NCBI GenBank assembly: GCA_043780835.1
Contig: JAYWCB010000005.1
Span: forward strand, 22,280 to 86,279
Direction: 5' to 3'
Source: Minisyncoccota bacterium
GTDB lineage: Bacteria > Patescibacteriota > Minisyncoccia > Phycocordibacterales > UBA2100
DNA length: 64,000 bases
The translations under genes and the position numbers were made by a program. The notes beneath the pieces are model-generated. The model did no database searches. It was not told the DNA's origin and saw only the letters and a program-made list of their open reading frames with translations. Below are positions 5,694 to 39,274 of this stretch, piece after piece. The stretch's first letter is position 1, and each line of letters starts with the position of its first letter.

Positions 5694-6779
5694 GTGGCGA
5701 TGAATGAAAGCATTCGTCGCGCACGCGATGTAAAGCGTGCAGAAATCGCACAGTCAAAAGTTGACGAGCCGGTCGAAAAGATCGACGAGGGCCGTCGTTG
5801 GTTTTTGCGGGGCGCTATTGCAAGTGCTGCGATGGCGGTGATGCCTGCACTTCCTGATACTGCGCACGCGGAAAAACTTGATGTACAGCGTTCTATAGAA
5901 GAGCGTGAAGCGATCATAGCGAATGCAATCGAGAAAACGAGGCGTGCAATGAACACGCCCGATGTACTCGCCGCGCGCAAAGGTGAAGGTCGCGACTTAT
6001 TGATGAAAGTGTTTCGCACGCTTCAATTTCCAATCACGCCGGAATTCATCAAAGGCACGAAGTACGACATGAGCGGTGTGCGCAAACGACACGCGGTGCA
6101 AATCGCATATCGGTGGGGGCGCAATCAGAAACTGATTGTGGAGCTTATTTCGAACAAGGCGGAATTCAAAAAAGAGACGGAGGCAGGGTATGGCAATGGA
6201 ATATTTTTCGGTACTGCACATTCTTTTCTCACTGCCAAACATGTGGCGGAAGATTCTCAGAACAGGCCCGATCCGAGAGCTGCTCGCGATATCGCGATTC
6301 TCCATACAGGTGCGTTGCGTGCACGTCCGGAACAGGTCGTAAAAGATGATCCCACACTTACCAACAACGACATCGACGGTGCGTTTGTTTCTGTCGAAGG
6401 AATTGATCCTGATACAACGGGTGATTTCGAGGGCTACAAAAGTTATCCCGGCGTTGCGCTGAAATTGTCGCGCGGGTTTATAGATAAATTATATTACACT
6501 ACTCCCGTTGCATACCGCGAGCGATTATGTAAATCGTTTGCGATTATATTGCCGCCTGGCGAGGGCACCGGGGCAACGGCCGCTCAAACGCCGGGTTCGG
6601 GTATGTCGGGTTCTCCGGTGTGGACGCTGCGCAACGGTGAGCGGGTGCTCGCCGGTATTATGCATATGACAACAAGTGAGCGGGACCCTGCGACCGGCAG
6701 AACTATCGATATAGCTTTTTTTCACGGCATCGAGGACGTGCGCGAAGAAGTTGCCTCACATATTCGAAGCGGCGCCTGA
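5694..6779 (+). CDS. Tat-signal secreted trypsin-like serine protease; the ATG at 5700 is probably the start
   Basis: GRRWFLRGAIASAAMAV is a twin-arginine motif. TAKHV (His), DIAILH (Asp) and GSGMSGSPV (Ser) form a chymotrypsin-fold catalytic triad. TATACT lies at 5688-5693, 6 nt before the ATG. Confidence 0.7.
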   Translation: MAMNESIRRARDVKRAEIAQSKVDEPVEKIDEGRRWFLRGAIASAAMAVMPALPDTAHAEKLDVQRSIEEREAIIANAIEKTRRAMNTPDVLAARKGEGRDLLMKVFRTLQFPITPEFIKGTKYDMSGVRKRHAVQIAYRWGRNQKLIVELISNKAEFKKETEAGYGNGIFFGTAHSFLTAKHVAEDSQNRPDPRAARDIAILHTGALRARPEQVVKDDPTLTNNDIDGAFVSVEGIDPDTTGDFEGYKSYPGVALKLSRGFIDKLYYTTPVAYRERLCKSFAIILPPGEGTGATAAQTPGSGMSGSPVWTLRNGERVLAGIMHMTTSERDPATGRTIDIAFFHGIEDVREEVASHIRSGA

Positions 6780-30885: not shown

Positions 30886-30912
30886 GGACCGCGCGTTGCG
30901 CGGTCCTTTGTT
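30886..30912 (+). terminator. Intrinsic terminator ggaccgcgc-gtt-gcgcggtcc plus tttgtt
   Basis: Read directly. It lies inside the 5' extension of the listed rnhB ORF, which supports the trimmed rnhB start. Confidence 0.6.
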
Positions 30913-30925
30913 ATTATTATGCGTA

Positions 30926-31561
30926 ATGAGATACGTCATCGGTATCGACGAAGCGGGTCGCGGCGCACTTGCCGGTCCTGTTTGCGTCGGAGCCGTTTTG
31001 ATGCCGCTTGATTTGGACTGGCGCATTGCATACGCACTGGTAACCACTCGTGGCGAACCGCGCCTTCGGGATTCCAAACAGCTCTCAGCCCAACAGCGTG
31101 AGATTCTGTACGAATATATCGTCACGCACGGCCGCTTGAAACACGCGGCTGCATTCGTAGATGCGCCGGTTATCGATTCCATCGGGATCGTAAATGCTGC
31201 TCATGAGGCGGCAGCCGTTGCGCTCACTCGCATCGGTGTGAGTGCGGATAAGGTGGAAGTGCTGCTCGACGCGGGCTTACGCGTGCCCGAATTGTGGCAG
31301 CAGCGCTCGTTTGTACGGGGCGACGAAAATGTGCCCGCGATCGCGCTCGCGTCGGTTATTGCAAAAGTCACACGGGACAGGCTTATGGAAAGTCTTCCGG
31401 AGAACTTTTCGCCCTATAAATTCAGCGAACACAAGGGCTACGGGACGCTCGCACATCGCAAGGCAATAGCAAAATCCGGGCTCTCTGTGTTGCATCGAGC
31501 AACGTTCTGTACACGGCTCTCGCACGCCGGAAACCGCTCCGAAGCCCTTTCAGAGGAGTAA
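30926..31561 (+). CDS. rnhB: Ribonuclease HII
   Basis: MRYVIGIDEAGRGALAGPV is the canonical RNase HII N-terminus. Confidence 0.85.
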   Translation: MRYVIGIDEAGRGALAGPVCVGAVLMPLDLDWRIAYALVTTRGEPRLRDSKQLSAQQREILYEYIVTHGRLKHAAAFVDAPVIDSIGIVNAAHEAAAVALTRIGVSADKVEVLLDAGLRVPELWQQRSFVRGDENVPAIALASVIAKVTRDRLMESLPENFSPYKFSEHKGYGTLAHRKAIAKSGLSVLHRATFCTRLSHAGNRSEALSEE

Positions 31562-31583
31562 GGGCTGCCGCAACTGCGTGGCG

Positions 31584-31611
31584 TTGCAAAAAGGCTTACA
31601 ATCTGTATAAT
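31584..31611 (+). promoter_or_regulatory. Promoter TTGCAA-16-TATAAT, 10 nt upstream of the rpmF ATG
   Basis: Read directly. Confidence 0.5.
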
Positions 31612-31621
31612 CCGCCCCAAT

Positions 31622-31891
31622 ATGGTAATCCGAATGCGTCGTAATCGTTCTCAAACCGCCCAGCGGCGTTCTCATCATGGGCTGACCAGTTCTCGCGTAA
31701 CTACCGATGCGTCCGGTAATGCGCACCTGCGCCATCGCGTGGATCCGGAAACCGGGATGTACCGAGGCAAGGTCATTATCGACGTCGTCGCCCGAGCAAA
31801 GCGCGATCAGCGACGCGCAAAGCGCAAAGACACTGAATTGCGTGCGAGCGGCCAAATTCGCGAAGACAAGCAGACCGAAGCAACCAAATAA
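31622..31891 (+). CDS. rpmF: Ribosomal protein L32 with a basic C-terminal extension
   Basis: The RRSHHGLT motif is typical of bL32. Confidence 0.6.
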   Translation: MVIRMRRNRSQTAQRRSHHGLTSSRVTTDASGNAHLRHRVDPETGMYRGKVIIDVVARAKRDQRRAKRKDTELRASGQIREDKQTEATK

Positions 31892-32025
31892 CACAAAGAT
31901 AAAGAACCGTCGAGAGTCGGTTCTTTTCTTACAGAGTGCGTTCAGTCATCCACAGTTTTGCGCGCAGGTTCATCGGCAGTTTATTTTTATCGTGTACACT
32001 AGGGGAGTGTTCAGTTCCTTCGTAT

Positions 32026-32943
32026 ATGGCAAATAGGCACCTCGCACGTTCGGTCGCTCTGCAAGTGCTCTTTGAGCGCGATTCCTCGAATGGTGCGTTG
32101 TCGCTGGATGAGTGCTACGGACGATTGGCAGATTATGCCAAAGAATTCGGTGCACGCGATTCAGATATGCCGTTTATGAAGACACTTCTCCAAACCGCGA
32201 TCACAAAGCAAAAAGAAATCGATGAGGTAATCGTGCGCGCTGCGCCGGAATGGCCACTTGATAAAATCGCGGCCATCGATCGTAATATTTTGCGTATCGG
32301 ATTAACCGAGCTTTTGTACGCGGATCGAGCGCAAGTGCCCGCAAAAGTGGCAATCAATGAAGCGATAGAACTCGCGAAAGCATTCGGGAGCGCATCGTCC
32401 GGCCGTTTCGTGAATGGTGTACTCGGTGCGGTGTATGTGGAGCTCGGAGAGCCCGGAAAAAACGAAGGCAGCATGCGAAAATCTCCCGCGAATCCGGCAA
32501 AAATGCCGCTCGAGGAGCTTGCAGGGGCCGTTGTGTATGCGGAAAACGAAGGCGAGTTTTACCTCGCGTTCGTGCACGATATATTCGGCCACTGGACGAT
32601 CTCAAAGGGAAAAGTGGAACACGGTGAAGACGTCCAGCAGGGAGCCATCCGTGAACTGAAAGAAGAAATGGGTTTGGATATTGAGATCGTAGAAGAAATC
32701 GGTGTGAATGAATATATAGCCAACGACTCAAAAATCTCCGGCGGTAAAAAGAAAAAGCGCGTTACCTATTTCCTCGCGAAATCACCGTTTGTTGATATCA
32801 AACTCGGTCCCTCAGGCGGGCTCGATGATGCGCAGTGGTTTCCCCTTGCTGCGGTGGGAGATTTGAATTTCTATGACGACTCCCTTACCAAGATCGTGAT
32901 CCCGGCCATTAAGGCCCTCGCGAAAATTCGCGCGCAGAAGTAG
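32026..32943 (+). CDS. nusB: NusB antitermination factor fused to a C-terminal NUDIX hydrolase domain
   Basis: The N-terminal 145 aa are NusB-like (ARSVALQVLFE...RNILRIGLTELLY). The C-terminus carries a perfect Nudix box GKVEHGEDVQQGAIRELKEEMGL. Confidence 0.75.
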   Translation: MANRHLARSVALQVLFERDSSNGALSLDECYGRLADYAKEFGARDSDMPFMKTLLQTAITKQKEIDEVIVRAAPEWPLDKIAAIDRNILRIGLTELLYADRAQVPAKVAINEAIELAKAFGSASSGRFVNGVLGAVYVELGEPGKNEGSMRKSPANPAKMPLEELAGAVVYAENEGEFYLAFVHDIFGHWTISKGKVEHGEDVQQGAIRELKEEMGLDIEIVEEIGVNEYIANDSKISGGKKKKRVTYFLAKSPFVDIKLGPSGGLDDAQWFPLAAVGDLNFYDDSLTKIVIPAIKALAKIRAQK

Positions 32944-32949
32944 GTACGT

Positions 32950-33636
32950 ATGGATTTCGCACCGTTTGAGGCGAAGATCGGATATACATTTCGCAAGCGT
33001 GAGCTCTTGGAGCAGGCGTTTACACATCGTTCGTATTTGAACGAGCATCGAGGATCCGGTCGTGAACACAACGAACGGCTCGAATTTTTGGGCGACGCAA
33101 TTCTTGAACTTGTCGTAACGGAATTTTTATATAACAAGTATCCCGATAAACCCGAAGGCGAGTTGACTGCCTTTCGCGCAGCACTTGTAAACACGGTATC
33201 GATTGCTGCTGCAGCCCAAGTACTCGGCATGAATGACTACTTACTGTTGAGTCGGGGCGAATCGCGTGACATGGGTCGTGCGCGACAAATCATTCTTGCC
33301 AATGCGTTCGAGGCGCTCATCGGCGCAATTCACTTAGATGCAGGCTACCCGGCGTCGCGCGATTTTATATCCAAGCAATTATTTCATAAAGCCGATGCGG
33401 TCGTAGAACACCGTCTGTGGCAGGACGCGAAAAGCAAGCTGCAGGAGTTATCACAAGAAAAACTCGGATTTACTCCTGTGTATGAAGTGGTAAGTCAGTC
33501 CGGTCCTGACCACGACAAAGTATTTCTGACCGGTGTGCGGTTGGGAAGCGAACGCGTAGCGACCGGTGAAGGCCGATCAAAACAAGAATCAGAACAAGCG
33601 GCGGCGGTGAAGGCGATTGTGGCGAAGGGATGGTAG
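32950..33636 (+). CDS. rnc: Ribonuclease III
   Basis: The signature ERLEFLGDA and a dsRBD C-terminus. Confidence 0.9.
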   Translation: MDFAPFEAKIGYTFRKRELLEQAFTHRSYLNEHRGSGREHNERLEFLGDAILELVVTEFLYNKYPDKPEGELTAFRAALVNTVSIAAAAQVLGMNDYLLLSRGESRDMGRARQIILANAFEALIGAIHLDAGYPASRDFISKQLFHKADAVVEHRLWQDAKSKLQELSQEKLGFTPVYEVVSQSGPDHDKVFLTGVRLGSERVATGEGRSKQESEQAAAVKAIVAKGW

Positions 33637-33644
33637 GGCGCTAC

Positions 33645-33742
33645 GGGACACGTGGCCTTTTTGGGTACGAAATTTTCTTGGTAGAAAATTTTTCCATGTT
33701 CACGCCGTCGCGTTCACAAGCCCCAAAAAGGCCGCGTGTCCC
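33645..33742 (+). repeat. 21-bp inverted repeat (gggacacgtggcctttttggg ... cccaaaaaggccgcgtgtccc) enclosing a 56-nt loop with its own gaaaatttt duplications, 9 nt after the rnc stop
   Basis: Read directly. One G.U wobble if folded as RNA. Confidence 0.6.
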
Positions 33743-33900
33743 TACGCTTGATTGAGGAGAGAAAAATTTCTCCATTCTCGGTCCGTCGACCTCGAAAGCC
33801 TCCAAATCGGCACGTATCCCTCCGCTGGGTTGTGTAGGTGCGGAAGAGATGGCAGAGTAGCGGAAGTTTAGTGATAGTTAACCGGAAACAGGAGAAAAGA

Positions 33901-34275
33901 ATGCGCGAATCGATACCGTTGCTCAACATCGGCGGCACCCGCATTGCTCGGATCGGCAGTACGCCGTGCTTCATGCAAGACGTCTCAATCGGACGCGAAT
34001 TCGCGGCCGACGGCCGTCTCTATCAGCTCATGATGTCGCAGACAAAATTTAGTGCCGTGCAGATGCTGAGTCGATTTCGTAAGGACGGCAAGTGGTACAT
34101 GCGCATGGACGAAAAAAGTGCGAAACTTCTTGATCCGAATATGCCGCTTGCGGATACATGTCAGATCCAAATCATTCTGGACGCGACTCAAAAAGTTGAA
34201 GCGCTCGACATCATCTATCGCGGCCGCGACGAACGCGCTCCAGCGCCGAATGTCAGTAAGATTGCACGTGCTTAA
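33901..34275 (+). CDS. Hypothetical protein (124 aa)
   Basis: SD aggag lies 6 nt upstream. Confidence 0.45.
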   Translation: MRESIPLLNIGGTRIARIGSTPCFMQDVSIGREFAADGRLYQLMMSQTKFSAVQMLSRFRKDGKWYMRMDEKSAKLLDPNMPLADTCQIQIILDATQKVEALDIIYRGRDERAPAPNVSKIARA

Positions 34276-34282
34276 AACAATA

Positions 34283-34317
34283 CACCCGTGGGTCTCGGCC
34301 CGCGGGTGCGCTTTTTT
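34283..34317 (+). terminator. Hairpin cacccgtggg-tctcgg-cccgcgggtg plus T6
   Basis: Read directly. Confidence 0.55.
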
Positions 34318-34325
34318 GATACAAT
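34317..34325 (+). promoter_or_regulatory. Extended -10 element TGaTACAAT, 6 nt upstream of the GTG start of the SMC-like gene
   Basis: Read directly. Confidence 0.45.
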
Positions 34326-34331
34326 AATTGC

Positions 34332-36539
34332 GTGTATTTGAAATCGATCGAGCTGGCAGGGTTTAAATCGTTCGGAAAAAAGTCCGAACTGGTTTTTACA
34401 TCGACTATTGCCTCGATTGTTGGTCCGAACGGCTCAGGCAAATCCAATGTGGCAGAAGCGTTTCGCTTTGTCCTCGGCGAGCAGTCAATGAAAAGCATGC
34501 GCTCGAAAAAGGGTGAGGATCTCATTTGGGGCGGCTCACCAACATTGGGTCGCGCAAACCGCGCCGGAGTAAAAGTTATTTTTGATAATTCCACGCGATT
34601 GCTCGATATCGATTTCAACGAGGTCGTGCTCGAGCGAATCGTGTATCGAGACGGCCAGAACGAGTACCTGATGAACGGTACTGCGGTGCGCTTGAAAGAC
34701 GTTATTCGCCTGCTCGCGGGTGCGAACATTGGCGGATCGGGATACCAGATTATTTCGCAGGGCGAAGCGGATCGAATTTTAAATGCGTCGCCCAAAGAAC
34801 GTCGCGAAATGGTGGAAGATGCGCTCGGCCTGAAACTGTACCAACACAAGAAAGCCGAGTCCGAACGCAAGCTCGATGAAACCGGTATAAATATTGATAA
34901 GACCAAATCGCTACGTCGCGAAATTGCACCGCATTTGAATTTCTTACGTTTGCAGGTGGAAAAGATCGAAAAGGCACGGGAAATGAAGGAAGATTTAGCC
35001 GCAAAGTTGGCCGATTATCTCTCACGGGAGTACGCGTATCTTACTCAAGAAGATGCACGGCTTCTGGATGACGCACGAGCGCACGAGCATGAATTAAAAA
35101 CGCTTACCGAGCGTCTACGTGAAGCGGGGACTAAATCGGGGCGCGGCGGGGATGTAGCTTCGCAGGAATTACAGGCTCGTGTGAGCGAGTTACAGTCGCG
35201 ACTTTCTGAGACACGCCGTCGAAGAGAAGAGATTGCGCGCGAACTTGGTCGTGCCGAGGGCACACTTGAAGCGACAAATGTAACGGTAGAAGCAATTGTG
35301 CCGGTTCCGCATGTGCGGCAATTTGTGCATGAGGTCGATGATACGCTCTCCAATGCAGAACGAGCGGGTGATGTATCGGCTATGCGCGAGCTTGTATCAA
35401 ATGTGCGCGGACGAATTCGGGCGTTTGTTGACGGGCTCGCGGGAACTGCTCCGGAAACAAACAAAGAAGTGCAGCAACAGGTGGAGCGCCTCACCGTACA
35501 ATTGAAAGACATTGAAGCCGAAGAGGCGCGTCTTGCGACAGACATTGAAATGGCGCGCGCCGGCATTGCACAAAGCCGCGAAGCATCATTTGCCGCAGAG
35601 CGGGAATCGGTTGAATTGCAGTCGCAAGTGCGTGAGGTACGCACGATGCTCGATTCCGCCAACGCCGCACGCTCACAGCTCGCACACGTGCGGCAGCGGT
35701 TCGAAGAAGAGGTGCGTGAAGGCATTGCACTCATTGGTGCGGCGGTCCACGCGTGGGACAAAAATGAAATTCCTGAAGGCGCGCTTTCCGAAGACCGATC
35801 CATACAGGAAAAGCGCCGTCGCGATGTGGAGCGACTCAAGATAAAAATCGAAGAGAGCGGTATCGGCAACGGCGACGCCATCGTCAAAGAATTTACACAT
35901 ACAAAGGAGCGAGATGAATTTTTGACTCGCGAACTCATTGATTTGGAAAAGTCTGAGCACTCGTTGCGCGACATCATCGCCGATCTGGAGAAAACCATCG
36001 ACCTACGCTTCAACGAAGGCCTGAAAGACATCAACGTGGCTCTGAACTCCTTCTTCGCAAAGCTCTTCAACGGCGGGGAAGCGAAGTTTATGGTCGAGCA
36101 GTCCCGCCGCGCATCAAGGCGACGCCTTGATGCAGAGGATGACGACGGGTTGGAGGAAAGCCTCCTGGAAGACGAGGAGTTATATGCGGGACTCACTGTA
36201 GCGGTGCATTTGCCGCGCAAAAAAGTGCATGGCCTCGAAGTCCTTTCCGGGGGCGAGCGGGCACTGACTTCGATTGCAATGATTTTTGCGATGTCACAGG
36301 TGAATCCCCCGCCTTTTTTGATTTTAGACGAAACCGACGCCGCACTCGACGAGGCAAATTCCAAGCGCTACGCCGATATGATCCGCGAGCTCGGCGCAAA
36401 GTCACAGCTTATTGTGATCACCCACAATCGCGCCACGATGGCAGCAGCAGGGGAATTGTATGGCGTGACTATGGGAAGTGACGGTGTGTCCAAACTTTTG
36501 TCTGTGAAATTCGAAGAGGCTACCAAGGTAGCAAAGTAG
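34332..36539 (+). CDS. smc: SMC-family chromosome segregation ATPase, short form (735 aa, no obvious hinge)
   Basis: Walker A GPNGSGKSN, coiled coil, signature LSGGERALTSIA, and Walker B ILDETDAALD. Confidence 0.75.
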   Translation: MYLKSIELAGFKSFGKKSELVFTSTIASIVGPNGSGKSNVAEAFRFVLGEQSMKSMRSKKGEDLIWGGSPTLGRANRAGVKVIFDNSTRLLDIDFNEVVLERIVYRDGQNEYLMNGTAVRLKDVIRLLAGANIGGSGYQIISQGEADRILNASPKERREMVEDALGLKLYQHKKAESERKLDETGINIDKTKSLRREIAPHLNFLRLQVEKIEKAREMKEDLAAKLADYLSREYAYLTQEDARLLDDARAHEHELKTLTERLREAGTKSGRGGDVASQELQARVSELQSRLSETRRRREEIARELGRAEGTLEATNVTVEAIVPVPHVRQFVHEVDDTLSNAERAGDVSAMRELVSNVRGRIRAFVDGLAGTAPETNKEVQQQVERLTVQLKDIEAEEARLATDIEMARAGIAQSREASFAAERESVELQSQVREVRTMLDSANAARSQLAHVRQRFEEEVREGIALIGAAVHAWDKNEIPEGALSEDRSIQEKRRRDVERLKIKIEESGIGNGDAIVKEFTHTKERDEFLTRELIDLEKSEHSLRDIIADLEKTIDLRFNEGLKDINVALNSFFAKLFNGGEAKFMVEQSRRASRRRLDAEDDDGLEESLLEDEELYAGLTVAVHLPRKKVHGLEVLSGGERALTSIAMIFAMSQVNPPPFLILDETDAALDEANSKRYADMIRELGAKSQLIVITHNRATMAAAGELYGVTMGSDGVSKLLSVKFEEATKVAK

Positions 36540-36815
36540 CCTCAAGTTCGCTGTGGCGCATTTCTTCACGAGGCGCATTTTGTCGGGATGATGCTCCTAA
36601 AGAGAGGAGTGAAACAAGGAGTGGAATCGTTTCTATTCGTTGAAGACGTTTTTCTTTCATAATATGATCGAAGAAAACTATGCGTAATCATAATAGAAGA
36701 CAGATGAATACATCATGAATCGGTCATACAGTCGGGCTTGAATACCTGCAGCTTTCAAAAAGAGACATGTCGAGTATCGTGCGAAAATATTAACTGGTTG
36801 TTGCAGGAGTGGAAA

Positions 36816-36854
36816 CAATAAAAAAGGACCGGTCGAATGTTTTCGTACCGGTCC
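36816..36854 (-). terminator. Intrinsic terminator for the minus-strand gene 36876-37151 (hairpin ggaccggtcgaa / ttcgtaccggtcc, T-run on the minus strand)
   Basis: Read directly. Confidence 0.5.
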
Positions 36855-36875
36855 CGTTGGTAGTAGTGCCAAGGA

Positions 36876-37151
36876 TCAATTGCACTTTTCTGCATGTGCT
36901 TCCTCCGTCCCTACGTCGAGTTCCACTATATCTTTCTCGTCGATAACGCGTCGAACGACAGCTTTCAGCTCCTCCTTACTGCAGCATGTATGCAGAGATA
37001 CGAGCACCACAGTGAGTACGCTCTCCTCTGTGCACATGGAGTTGTAGACATCGCCCACACTATCGAGCGCATCACAGATACGTCGATATTGTTCGTGCGG
37101 GAAGGTACCACGCAATGTTACGCTTGCCTTAAGCTTGTTCACGAAGACCAC
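36876..37151 (-). CDS. Hypothetical small protein (91 aa)
   Basis: ORF with a downstream terminator. Confidence 0.4.
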   Translation of the reverse strand: MVFVNKLKASVTLRGTFPHEQYRRICDALDSVGDVYNSMCTEESVLTVVLVSLHTCCSKEELKAVVRRVIDEKDIVELDVGTEEAHAEKCN

Positions 37152-37231
37152 CTCCTTTCACAACTTTCACTTAATCATGAATACATTGTGATGTATATGA
37201 AGACGGTACGAGCGGCAGATTTGACCACAAT

Positions 37232-37260
37232 TTGACGGTCGGTGACAACTTTGTTAGAGT
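37232..37260 (+). promoter_or_regulatory. Promoter TTGACG-17-TAGAGT, 6 nt before the rpsP ATG (leaderless)
   Basis: Read directly. Confidence 0.5.
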
Positions 37261-37266
37261 CTCGCC

Positions 37267-37653
37267 ATGTTGAAAATTCGAATGCAGCGAGTAGGCCGCA
37301 TAAATATGCCGTCGTACCGTATTATTGTGGTGGAACACACCGAAGGACCAAAGACGGGTAATATCGTTGAAAAAGTCGGTACCTATAATCCTCGCTCCAA
37401 AGAGCGCGTAATCGACGCGGATCGCGTGAAGTACTGGATGTCAGTCGGCGCACAGCCATCGGACACCGTACACAATATGCTCATAAGCTTGGGCATCATG
37501 ACCGGCAAGAAGATTAATGTGCTCCCAAAGTTCGTAGCGCCTGAGAAGCCCGTTGAAGAAACTCCCGTAGCTTCGGCTCCAGCCGCAAAAGTAGCTGCAC
37601 CGGAAGAGGTTGCAGCAGAGACTCCTGCAACGGAAGAAACTCCTGCCGCGTAA
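37267..37653 (+). CDS. rpsP: Ribosomal protein S16 with an Ala/Pro/Glu-rich C-terminal extension
   Basis: MLKIRMQRVGRINMPSYRIIV. Confidence 0.9.
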   Translation: MLKIRMQRVGRINMPSYRIIVVEHTEGPKTGNIVEKVGTYNPRSKERVIDADRVKYWMSVGAQPSDTVHNMLISLGIMTGKKINVLPKFVAPEKPVEETPVASAPAAKVAAPEEVAAETPATEETPAA

Positions 37654-37744
37654 GCACAGTAACCCACAGATGGGTTTTGACCCGATGCCGTGAGAGCGGT
37701 ATTCTTCTAGGACTATTAGGAATTATTGAGTTGCTAACGACTGA

Positions 37745-38137
37745 ATGACTGTTATGGAACGCGATCAGCAATTTTTGGAATATGTTATCAAGTCTCTCGT
37801 CGAACATGCAGACGATGTAAAGATCACGCGTGTCGTTGATGAGATGGGTGTGCTCTTAACTCTCTGCGTCCATAAAGACGACATGGGTAAGGTCATCGGG
37901 CGTTCGGGCGCAACCGCTAAAGCAATCCGTACGATTTTGCGCGTGGTGGGTATGAAGTACGACGCGCGTGTCAATCTCAAGATCGAGGAACCGGAGGGTA
38001 GCGATCGCACAGGGCTCGGTTTGGGTGAAGACCGCGGACCGAAACCCGTTACGGCAGAGCCGGATCCGGCGAAGCCCTACGAGCGCGACACAACGGTAGA
38101 CGACGTGATCAACGACCTCAAAGAAGGAAAGATGTAA
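37745..38137 (+). CDS. KH-domain RNA-binding protein (YlqC/UPF0109-like)
   Basis: VGRSGATAKAIRTIL is a GXXG-type KH motif. Located downstream of rpsP. Confidence 0.7.
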   Translation: MTVMERDQQFLEYVIKSLVEHADDVKITRVVDEMGVLLTLCVHKDDMGKVIGRSGATAKAIRTILRVVGMKYDARVNLKIEEPEGSDRTGLGLGEDRGPKPVTAEPDPAKPYERDTTVDDVINDLKEGKM

Positions 38138-38151
38138 TCAAAAAACAGCAC

Positions 38152-38400
38152 ATGCCGTCGTTCCGCAGACTCGGATTCATATCTGTCGCGTGCATTGCGA
38201 TGCTTATGATGTACGACATTTTTGTTGCCTCATCATGGGGAACTGCGATTCCGATCTTTGATGCACTCCTGGTATTTGCTGCTCTGGTGAGTTTTGCTTG
38301 GGTAGATAAAGCGATAGATATACCGAACCGTCACGCGCGATGGTTACGGGTGATCGGCATAGTCATGATTGTTTGGTACCTCGCTCGCGTCACTAGTTGA
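38152..38400 (+). CDS. Small membrane protein (82 aa), sitting where rimM is normally found
   Basis: Two to three TM helices. Confidence 0.35.
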   Translation: MPSFRRLGFISVACIAMLMMYDIFVASSWGTAIPIFDALLVFAALVSFAWVDKAIDIPNRHARWLRVIGIVMIVWYLARVTS

Positions 38401-38581
38401 GTCGCTGGTTCTTCGTCTTTCGCATTCATAGGTGCGAAATGCTCTTGCATGCATGTGACTCACTTCTACGTTTTCGTCGAGTGGTAATACGTGGAGAGTT
38501 CTTTTTGGTTCCATGAAGCCATTACCACACGATGCTCTTAAGTTCATTGACATGTTCGAAAACTATGATGATATAACCACG

Positions 38582-39274
38582 ATGATGCATTTTCATGTTG
38601 TCAGTTTGTTTCCCGAAGCTATCGAGCCGTATCTGAAGAGATCGATTTTGGGACGCGCTATCGAAGAAAAGAAAATAAAGGTCTCGTACTATGATCCCAA
38701 GGATTTTAGTCTTCCGGCCCGTGGTAAAAAAGCACGTGCGCAGGATATGCGGGTTGATCGTCGGCCATACGGCGGTGGTCCCGGTATGGTCTTACGACCT
38801 GATCCGATTTTAAAAGCGGTAGAAAAGGCACGCGGCAAAAAGAAGAAGGTGATGATAATCTTCTTCGCTACGGATGGAGAACAATTTACAGAAGAAATGG
38901 CAAAACGGATGGCGAATCCTAAAGGCGACGCCTTTAGGAATATTATATTCATCTGCGGAAGATACGAAGGCATTGATGCGCGCGTGCAGAAGATTTTGAA
39001 AGCAAAAAAAGTCACGGTCGGTCCGTATGTAGTCACGGGAGGGGAATTGCCGGCGGCAATAATGATCGATGTGATCGCGCGATTTATTCCGGGGGTGTTG
39101 GGTAAAGCCGAATCGTTGGAGGCGTCTCGCGTCTCAAGTCCTGAAGTGTATACGCGTCCCGAAGTGTTGGAGTGGAAGAAAAAGAAATACCGTGTGCCGA
39201 AAGTGCTTTTGGGCGGCAACCACGCAGAAATGGACGCGTGGAAGGCCTCTATTCGTTCAAAAAAGTCAAAGTGA
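38582..39274 (+). CDS. trmD: tRNA (guanine37-N1)-methyltransferase
   Basis: SPOUT motifs DRRPYGGGPGMVL and ICGRYEGIDARV. Confidence 0.88.
   Translation: MMHFHVVSLFPEAIEPYLKRSILGRAIEEKKIKVSYYDPKDFSLPARGKKARAQDMRVDRRPYGGGPGMVLRPDPILKAVEKARGKKKKVMIIFFATDGEQFTEEMAKRMANPKGDAFRNIIFICGRYEGIDARVQKILKAKKVTVGPYVVTGGELPAAIMIDVIARFIPGVLGKAESLEASRVSSPEVYTRPEVLEWKKKKYRVPKVLLGGNHAEMDAWKASIRSKKSK

Follow-up and report, generated by a model that had tools for sequence, protein, structure and literature searches.

NusB is among the best-studied transcription factors and has been described as a single-domain protein; the known proteins, such as those of Escherichia coli, Aquifex, Thermotoga and Mycobacterium tuberculosis, have approximately 130–160 amino acids (aa). 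The BoxA site of NusB is built by its C-terminal helix. In the E. coli protein, F122 stacks on U8 of BoxA, and with the substitution F122D binding to BoxA and function are both lost; E81 reads U8 and touches H15 of NusE, and Y18 is the residue changed in nusB5 (Y18D), which likely disrupts the heterodimer (PMC3177189). In this study, we analysed the nusB::nudix gene which is located in a 64,000-nucleotide (nt) stretch of DNA (here called the window) from a Minisyncoccota bacterium (GenBank assembly GCA_043780835.1, contig JAYWCB010000005.1, positions 22,280 to 86,279 of the forward strand). In the encoded protein, a NusB domain is followed by an additional C-terminal Nudix domain of about 140 aa. 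According to our genome searches, NusB::Nudix is the form in which NusB normally occurs in much of the Paceibacteria (Candidate Phyla Radiation, CPR), including the Kaiserbacteria.

Several described systems resemble this protein in part. RsmB (Sun), the 16S rRNA m5C967 methyltransferase, also combines an N-terminal NusB-like domain with a C-terminal enzyme domain of rRNA biogenesis, but its enzyme domain is an S-adenosylmethionine (SAM) methyltransferase instead of a Nudix domain and its NusB-like domain is a paralog, whereas the domain described here is an orthologous NusB. RsmB models matched the NusB region only (E 1e-11, 30–44 bits) and stayed far under their cut-offs of 269–540 bits, which ruled out membership in this family. 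A Nudix domain without catalytic function is already known to be joined to a nucleic-acid-binding domain in NrtR. Its Nudix domain, like those of the fusion family often catalytically inactive, serves ligand sensing, but the partner is a C-terminal winged helix which represses DNA operators, whereas here an RNA-binding Nus factor lies N-terminal to the Nudix domain. The only domains found in our protein were the N-terminal NusB and the C-terminal Nudix domain, and the likeness to NrtR is thus one of analogy. CFIm25 (NUDT21), an inactive Nudix protein of eukaryotic RNA processing, and SuhB are examples of enzyme folds reused non-catalytically in RNA-processing or transcription complexes; CFIm25 is, however, eukaryotic and not fused to a Nus factor, and SuhB has no sequence relationship to the protein. 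According to two reports, SuhB, an inositol monophosphatase, is an integral subunit of the Nus complex in E. coli (PMC6614797, PMC6614801).

The gene and the segments of its product are the following (coordinates refer to the window):

32026–32943, plus strand: nusB::nudix open reading frame (ORF), 305 aa plus stop codon, an unbroken frame with two Pfam domains
32026–32445 (aa 1–140), plus strand: NusB domain, all-helical (PF01029, TIGR01951, AlphaFold2, Foldseek)
32446–32520 (aa 141–165), plus strand: predicted flexible linker (AlphaFold2 disorder), with GEPGK at aa 141–145
32521–32940 (aa 166–305), plus strand: Nudix domain, putatively of the diadenosine polyphosphate (ApnA) hydrolase type (PF00293, PDB neighbours)
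32608–32676 (aa 195–217), plus strand: Nudix box GKVEHGEDVQQGAIRELKEEMGL, read from the sequence

Integrity and distribution of the fusion

The reading frame runs without interruption from the ATG at 32026 to the TAG at 32941–32943 and encodes 305 aa, in agreement with the original prediction of a single ORF fusing NusB to a Nudix domain. A tblastn scan in which each GTDB species was represented by a single genome gave matches in at least 495 species, and 80 loci with 58–92% identity were fetched. All of these loci gave a one-frame match over residues 1 to approximately 300, with the linker in frame in 80/80. Both Pfam domains were present in each of the 120 close homologs listed (78–94% identity). 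The ATG at 32026 is supported as the start by tblastn matches from residue 1 in nearly all 80 loci, and the lengths of the listed homologs (mostly 301–310 aa) agree with it. A longer version starting with the GTG at 31936 was ruled out since the homolog N-termini and the tblastn matches start at the ATG. The rate of nonsynonymous substitutions (dN) was 0.04–0.18 in the NusB and Nudix domains alike, while synonymous changes (dS) were saturated.

The original prediction had raised the worry that separate nusB and nudix genes were joined by a frameshift in sequencing or assembly. The uninterrupted fusion recurs, however, across hundreds of independent assemblies, as is evident from the 120 close homologs, the 80 loci and the species matched in the scan. 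A frameshift or misassembly is therefore excluded; no point in its favour was found and its probability is practically nil.

An exhaustive HMMER search against 50%-identity cluster representatives revealed dozens of full-length fusion clusters reaching down to 29–31% identity. When the search was seeded by a 31%-identical member, further two-domain fusions with a length of approximately 300 aa were found under the labels Pacebacteria, Paceibacterota or Patescibacteria, some of them located on contigs of 0.6–0.75 Mb. The named proteins among the 120 close homologs are annotated just as "NusB" and come mostly from Candidatus Kaiserbacteria. The survey of phylogenetic distribution suggested together with the original prediction thus showed the fusion in a large part of the Paceibacteria. 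The fusion had been called unusual, which holds in comparison with model bacteria only; within this clade the fused protein is the rule.

NusB proteins without a Nudix partner, approximately 150 aa long, also occur among the related sequences. One of them (152 aa, 45% identical to the window NusB domain) is encoded at positions 6001–6459 of the fetched locus L083, on a 71-kb contig. Its gene follows groES-groEL and small ORFs and precedes a gene for a PaaX_M-domain protein, with no rpmF or rnc nearby. Candidates for stand-alone Nudix orthologs were dismissed; these Nudix-only relatives were confined to contigs of 0.7–1.8 kb and are probably fragments because of this small contig size. No second nusB or Nudix gene was found in the 64-kb window. 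A literature search found no description of a NusB-Nudix fusion or of NusB in CPR bacteria. The fusion is therefore new to the literature, although the logic of joining a NusB-like domain to an rRNA enzyme is already known from RsmB.

The NusB domain

The claim that the N-terminal domain is a complete NusB was borne out by the TIGR01951 equivalog model for nusB, which gave 113.3 bits (cut-off 88.35). The Pfam model PF01029 matched aa 7–136 with E 2.9e-30 and 105.8 bits (cut-off 23.1). The fold predicted by AlphaFold2 comprises seven helices with a predicted local distance difference test score (pLDDT) above 90, and it superposes on Aquifex NusB (3r2d_B) with a TM-score (TMt) of 0.87 and a root-mean-square deviation (rmsd) of 2.0 Å (Foldseek). 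The NusB half could be aligned with the solved NusB structures of Thermotoga, Aquifex, M. tuberculosis and E. coli, with which it shares the seven-helix fold and the helices VPxKVAINEAIELAK...FVNGVL.

The residues contacting BoxA and NusE are also preserved. F128, which aligns with E. coli F122, is invariant across 46 diverse fusions; D85, the counterpart of E81, is conserved in at least 90% of these members, as are R4 and R8 of the basic N-terminus, and F16 aligns with Y18. Since these equivalents and the fold are kept, we conclude that the N-terminal domain retains the function of NusB, i.e. that it is predicted to be an antitermination factor binding BoxA RNA and S10.

The linker and the domain arrangement

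An AlphaFold2 model was built from a 140-sequence alignment (A2) and had a mean pLDDT of 89 and a predicted TM-score (pTM) of 0.51. It comprises NusB (aa 1–140), a disordered linker of about 20 residues, with pLDDT below 50 at aa 143–157, and an alpha/beta Nudix domain (aa ~160–305). With this pTM, no fixed orientation of NusB and Nudix is predicted, and according to the model the two domains fold independently and are joined by a flexible tether. Within the protein, conservation is lowest in the linker, whose length also varies. The GEPGK motif which opens the predicted disordered linker (aa 141–145, 32446–32460) is conserved in at least 90% of the 140 relatives in A2, i.e. in the wider Kaiserbacteria-type clade, and may be an interaction motif.

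The Nudix domain

The PF00293 model matched aa 167–277 (E 2.1e-16, 60.6 bits, cut-off 21.1) and the predicted alpha/beta/alpha fold superposes on many Nudix structures (Foldseek). The Nudix box GKVEHGEDVQQGAIRELKEEMGL (aa 195–217) fits GX5EX7REUXEEXGU exactly, so that the box is canonical in this genome, as had been noticed before. Among the top PDB neighbours in both sequence and fold was the Aquifex Ap4A hydrolase aq_158 (3i7u, TMt 0.82–0.84, 28–30% identity). The others were mycobacterial MutT1/Rv2985, whose structure was deposited as "Nudix diadenosine polyphosphatase", Chlamydia CT771, the Caenorhabditis elegans (1ktg) and human Ap4A hydrolases, and Thermus Ndx1. The signature preceding the box, HWT-x-S/P-KG, matches that of Ap4A/ApnA hydrolases (WTxPKG). 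Because the nearest sequences, the nearest folds and this signature all belong to Ap4A/ApnA hydrolases, the Nudix domain in the window is putatively assigned to the ApnA hydrolase type, by nearest neighbours at 24–30% identity.

The likeness to these enzymes extends to W-T-x-P/S-K-G ahead of the box, a Lys-rich loop, the YxL and W motifs and, in the window, the canonical box, with TMt up to 0.84 and 24–30% identity (phmmer, Foldseek). The domain differs from them in two respects: Ap4A/ApnA hydrolases are free-standing, or fused to a histidine phosphatase in MutT1, whereas the window domain is fused to NusB, and many orthologs of the fusion have K, V, I or A in place of the Glu of the box motif RE (human E58).

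The similarity to free-standing Ap4A hydrolases, which is the greatest one observed, and the canonical box in this genome would also be compatible with a housekeeping ApnA or nucleoside triphosphate (NTP) pyrophosphatase which, in a streamlined genome, was joined to NusB and is co-expressed with it but works independently. The flexible, weakly conserved linker of variable length would suit such an uncoupled passenger. However, a passenger domain which had lost its activity would be expected to be deleted, whereas the domain is full-length and keeps conserved non-catalytic residues in most clusters of the family. Moreover, the fusion is intact across identities from 29% to 94% and the Nudix-only relatives are probably fragments. 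We therefore regard an independent passenger as unlikely.

Catalytic residues in the family

Five catalytic residues of the box, E201, R209, E210, E213 and E214, were scored. The 28 close proteins which had been sampled for A2 (78–93% identity) had lost none of them. In the close clade, defined by at least 58% identity, E210 was kept in 153/201 proteins and changed to Lys in 42/201. Among intermediate relatives (47–59% identity), 56/109 had a canonical box and the remaining 53 lacked a catalytic residue, mostly through replacement of E210 by K, V, A or G. Only 8 of the 46 diverse cluster representatives kept all five residues, and 38/46 had lost at least one. The loss thus concerned mostly E210, the Glu of RE. 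In a neighbour-joining tree, one half of the family contained canonical and degenerate boxes interspersed, and the other half had no canonical box; this scattering indicates that the catalytic residues were lost repeatedly. A degenerate box in homologs had been named in advance as an argument against the fusion as originally described. Such boxes do exist in the numbers given above, but the box in the window itself is canonical.

E210 aligns with E58 of human NUDT2, the E58A mutant of which was crystallised (PDB 4ijx). We take this position to be also that of the catalytically dead E53A mutant of E. coli RppH and of the general base of MutT. Other residues are retained in the 38 degenerate representatives: W190 in 35/38, K194 in 37/38, Y230 in 32/38, K/R244 in 34/38, Y248 in 37/38, W271 in 35/38 and Y283 in 36/38. 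In the alignment, the counterparts of K194 and K244 in the C. elegans Ap4A hydrolase are K36 and K83, which are presumably phosphate ligands. The adenine-stacking residue of the C. elegans enzyme, which we take to be Y76, falls into a variable loop of the fusion and matches none of the conserved aromatics. Since Lys and aromatic residues are kept where catalysis is lost, the family as a whole seems to be under selection for the fold and a likely polyphosphate-binding site and not for hydrolysis, and its common role looks like binding. The window's own clade looks to be under selection for the catalytic residues too, and its protein is thus a putative active enzyme.

The repeated loss of the catalytic Glu, together with conservation of the fold, the likely phosphate-binding Lys and several aromatics, would be in agreement with a sensor analogous to NrtR. 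In that case, the Nudix domain would bind ApnA, ADP-ribose or a (p)ppGpp-like alarmone and tune antitermination or autoregulation by NusB, and hydrolysis, where it is kept, would reset the signal. The Nudix domain of NrtR was indeed among the top Foldseek matches (ranks 4–5), but these alignments had a high rmsd of approximately 10 Å. The catalytic box kept in the close clade of the window argues that chemistry matters there, and a pTM of 0.51 gives no predicted interdomain interface which could relay allostery. We consider a sensor somewhat unlikely.

The same dispensability of catalytic residues in much of the family, with the domain under purifying selection, could mean that the Nudix domain makes protein or RNA contacts in the rRNA antitermination complex, as SuhB or CFIm25 do in their complexes, and that catalysis is incidental; SuhB is the precedent for such a subunit of the Nus complex. 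The conserved residues are, however, candidates for the nucleotide site of an ApnA hydrolase, as judged from alignment and background knowledge, and they form no obvious new surface. The catalytic box is conserved in the clade of the window, and no partner or interface was identified. A purely structural subunit is accordingly very unlikely.

The BoxA-like leader

Two sequence elements were found upstream of the gene:

32014–32020, plus strand: BoxA-like heptamer GTTCCTT in the 5' leader, 12 nt ahead of the ATG
31995–32000, plus strand: −10-like hexamer TACACT, possible promoter of nusB::nudix-rnc, found by inspection only (a consensus scan made no call)

In 53/78 loci, the heptamer G[CTA]TC[CT]TT was present in the last 60 nt before the ATG; the background of these loci would give 2.7. 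In control leaders it was found in 0/72 for rpmF (L32), 1/76 for rnc and 1/55 for smc. The motif starts are concentrated 10–19 nt ahead of the ATG, and the unconstrained base preceding the heptamer is T in 45/67 sites. Many loci carry the variants TGCTCTTT(A), TGTTCTTT, TGATCTTT or TTGCTCCTT; the leaders of loci L003–L067 contain TGCTCTTTA, TGTTCTTT, TGATCTTT or GCTCCTT, often doubled with the copies 8–12 nt apart. The exact sequence GYTCTTTA occurred at 16 sites. In BoxA, a C at position 6 occurs in Aquifex and a U at position 3 in Gram-positive bacteria. The hexamers TAcAcT, TAtACT or TACAAT were seen by inspection to recur near the same spot in many loci. Where a −10-like element is visible, the 5' end of the mRNA would lie only approximately 10–25 nt from the BoxA-like site.

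The BoxA consensus of gamma-proteobacteria is GYTCTTTAANA, and BoxA-mediated autoregulation of Nus factors has been described there (PMC5725501). By analogy, the BoxA-like motif in the leader of the fusion gene suggests autoregulation by the Nus complex via this leader, and it supports the recognition of BoxA by these NusB domains. The sequence TGCTCTTTGA within the ORF (32066–32075), the sole perfect TGCTCTTTRA in the 64 kb, was rejected as a BoxA candidate: synonymous sites vary freely across the 78 loci, so that it is a by-product of the conserved peptide LQVLFE.

Gene neighbourhood

The neighbouring genes and the elements flanking them are:

31622–31891, plus strand: rpmF (ribosomal protein L32), the upstream neighbour (PF01783, synteny)
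31901–31926, strand not assigned: hairpin in the gap between rpmF and nusB::nudix, called on the minus strand by the scan
32950–33636, plus strand: rnc (RNase III), 228 aa (TIGR02191, 243 bits, cut-off 166)
33640–33666, plus strand: terminator-like hairpin at 33640–33656 and T-tract 3' of rnc, a consensus match only

NusB genes elsewhere are found in the contexts ribH-nusB or nusB-folD, whereas the gene in the window is placed between rpmF and rnc. The order dnaE (minus strand), rnhB, rpmF, nusB::nudix, rnc, a variable part and smc was found in essentially all 80 loci. The core rpmF-fusion-rnc, with or without smc, was also found around the 31%-identical member and around a member which is 54% identical in A2. 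The cluster persists across the Paceibacteria, also in clades with 31–50% identity. In the window, rnc starts at 32950, 6 nt past the stop codon of nusB::nudix. The short distance pointed out in the original prediction is thus real, and the adjacency is kept down to 31% identity, but in relatives the two genes are separated by approximately 12 to 560 nt, so that tight translational coupling is not conserved. NusB and RNase III are functionally linked in rRNA maturation, which could explain the persistence of the pair.

The hairpin at 31901–31926 could be the rpmF terminator, and nusB::nudix is probably co-transcribed with rnc. The hairpins after rpmF and after rnc weakly suggest a two-gene nusB::nudix-rnc transcription unit. 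No tRNA gene, rRNA or other Rfam family reached the threshold in the 64-kb window.

The region 30896–39274 contains rpmF ... rnc - smc ... rpsP - KH (KhpA) - trmD, with nusB::nudix in the slot between rpmF and rnc. We take this arrangement to resemble the Bacillus-type order without the plsX/fab/acpP fatty-acid genes. The L32 protein (31622–31891) has 89 aa, with a Pfam match at aa 9–54 only; the remaining C-terminal tail, approximately 35 residues long, is enriched in Lys, Arg and Glu. The spacer between rnc and smc (33637–34331) contains a 145-aa ORF (33838–34275) without a Pfam match, and in related loci the length of this interval lies anywhere between less than 0.1 kb and more than 3 kb. 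The SMC-like gene which follows (34332–36539) encodes 735 aa, whereas a typical bacterial SMC has about 1200 aa. As relatives match over approximately the same 2.2 kb and the version in the distant locus L081 has 696 aa, the shortened SMC seems to be a feature of the clade.

Possible function of the fusion protein

We tentatively propose, as a possible reading, that NusB tethers the Nudix module to BoxA-containing transcripts and that the module binds or hydrolyses a nucleoside-polyphosphate group, most plausibly the RNA 5' end. The NusB part together with S10 would dock on BoxA of nascent rRNA leaders, and it would also dock on the BoxA-like element of its own short leader, which would result in autoregulation. 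As the BoxA site is formed by the C-terminal helix of NusB, the tether would begin beside the bound RNA. The tethered Nudix domain would engage a nucleoside polyphosphate near the BoxA-bound complex, the likeliest target being the 5'-triphosphate or the nucleoside-tetraphosphate (Np4)-capped end of the transcript which carries BoxA. The engaged group would be hydrolysed in lineages whose box is intact, this genome among them, and only bound in those without the catalytic Glu. The fusion would work alongside RNase III in rRNA maturation. We infer all these binding and catalytic activities as well as the identity of the ligand.

In a more specific version, which is rather unlikely, NusB::Nudix would be a BoxA-guided enzyme or reader of RNA 5' ends. 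Docked on BoxA near the start of the transcript, it would bring its ApnA-type domain to the 5'-triphosphate or Np4 cap, both in rRNA leaders and in the mRNA of the fusion gene. Where the box is intact, the protein would convert the end and so license 5'-end-dependent decay or processing coordinated with RNase III; where it is degenerate, the protein would clamp the end and keep the 5' leader on the elongation complex.

A number of observations weigh against the proposed engagement of BoxA transcripts and their 5' ends. RppH enzymes (E. coli NudH, Bacillus subtilis YtkD/BsRppH and Bdellovibrio BdRppH) share the Nudix fold with the protein, and an action of the latter at RNA 5' polyphosphate ends is conceivable, but the parallel with RppH drawn in the original prediction did not hold. 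The Nudix domain is not RppH-like: it gave 17–29 bits with the PRK00714 sub-models (cut-offs 116–259) and 17.8 bits with TIGR02705 (cut-off 154.4), far under every RppH cut-off, and BdRppH was a weak sequence match (E 7.7e-4). RppH itself has no RNA-targeting tether. As the RE Glu was lost repeatedly, many members of the family evidently do without hydrolysis. The conserved residues would suit a small molecule just as well as an RNA 5' end, and a fixed interdomain interface has no support in the AlphaFold2 model.

The leader and the gene neighbourhood supply further arguments of this kind. The window copy of the BoxA-like motif, GTTCCTT, is a lone, weaker variant which is by itself not significant and lies downstream of the −10-like TACACT, and at L081 and L082, two distant loci, the motif was absent. 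The 64-kb window contains no rRNA operon or rrn BoxA, so that the presumed main target is not seen in it. The neighbourhood of rnc may be in part an inherited Firmicute-like synteny, perhaps without any functional coupling, and with such ancestral-type synteny and a variable spacer the adjacency alone is no proof of a dedicated module.

Significance

The public annotation "NusB" conceals the second domain of these proteins. In Paceibacteria, the only NusB seen at this locus has a strongly conserved extra domain, although the genomes are reduced there and the loss of superfluous domains would be expected. The domain kept despite the repeated loss of its catalytic Glu represents a clean natural series from enzyme to pseudoenzyme. 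If the Nudix domain acts on or holds RNA 5' ends, antitermination, 5'-end chemistry and processing by RNase III would be linked by one polypeptide, and if it acts there under the guidance of BoxA, the protein would be the first Nus factor to carry an RNA-end-modifying activity of its own. If the domain is instead a nucleotide sensor, it would provide a new input to the control of rRNA synthesis in organisms whose growth control is poorly understood.

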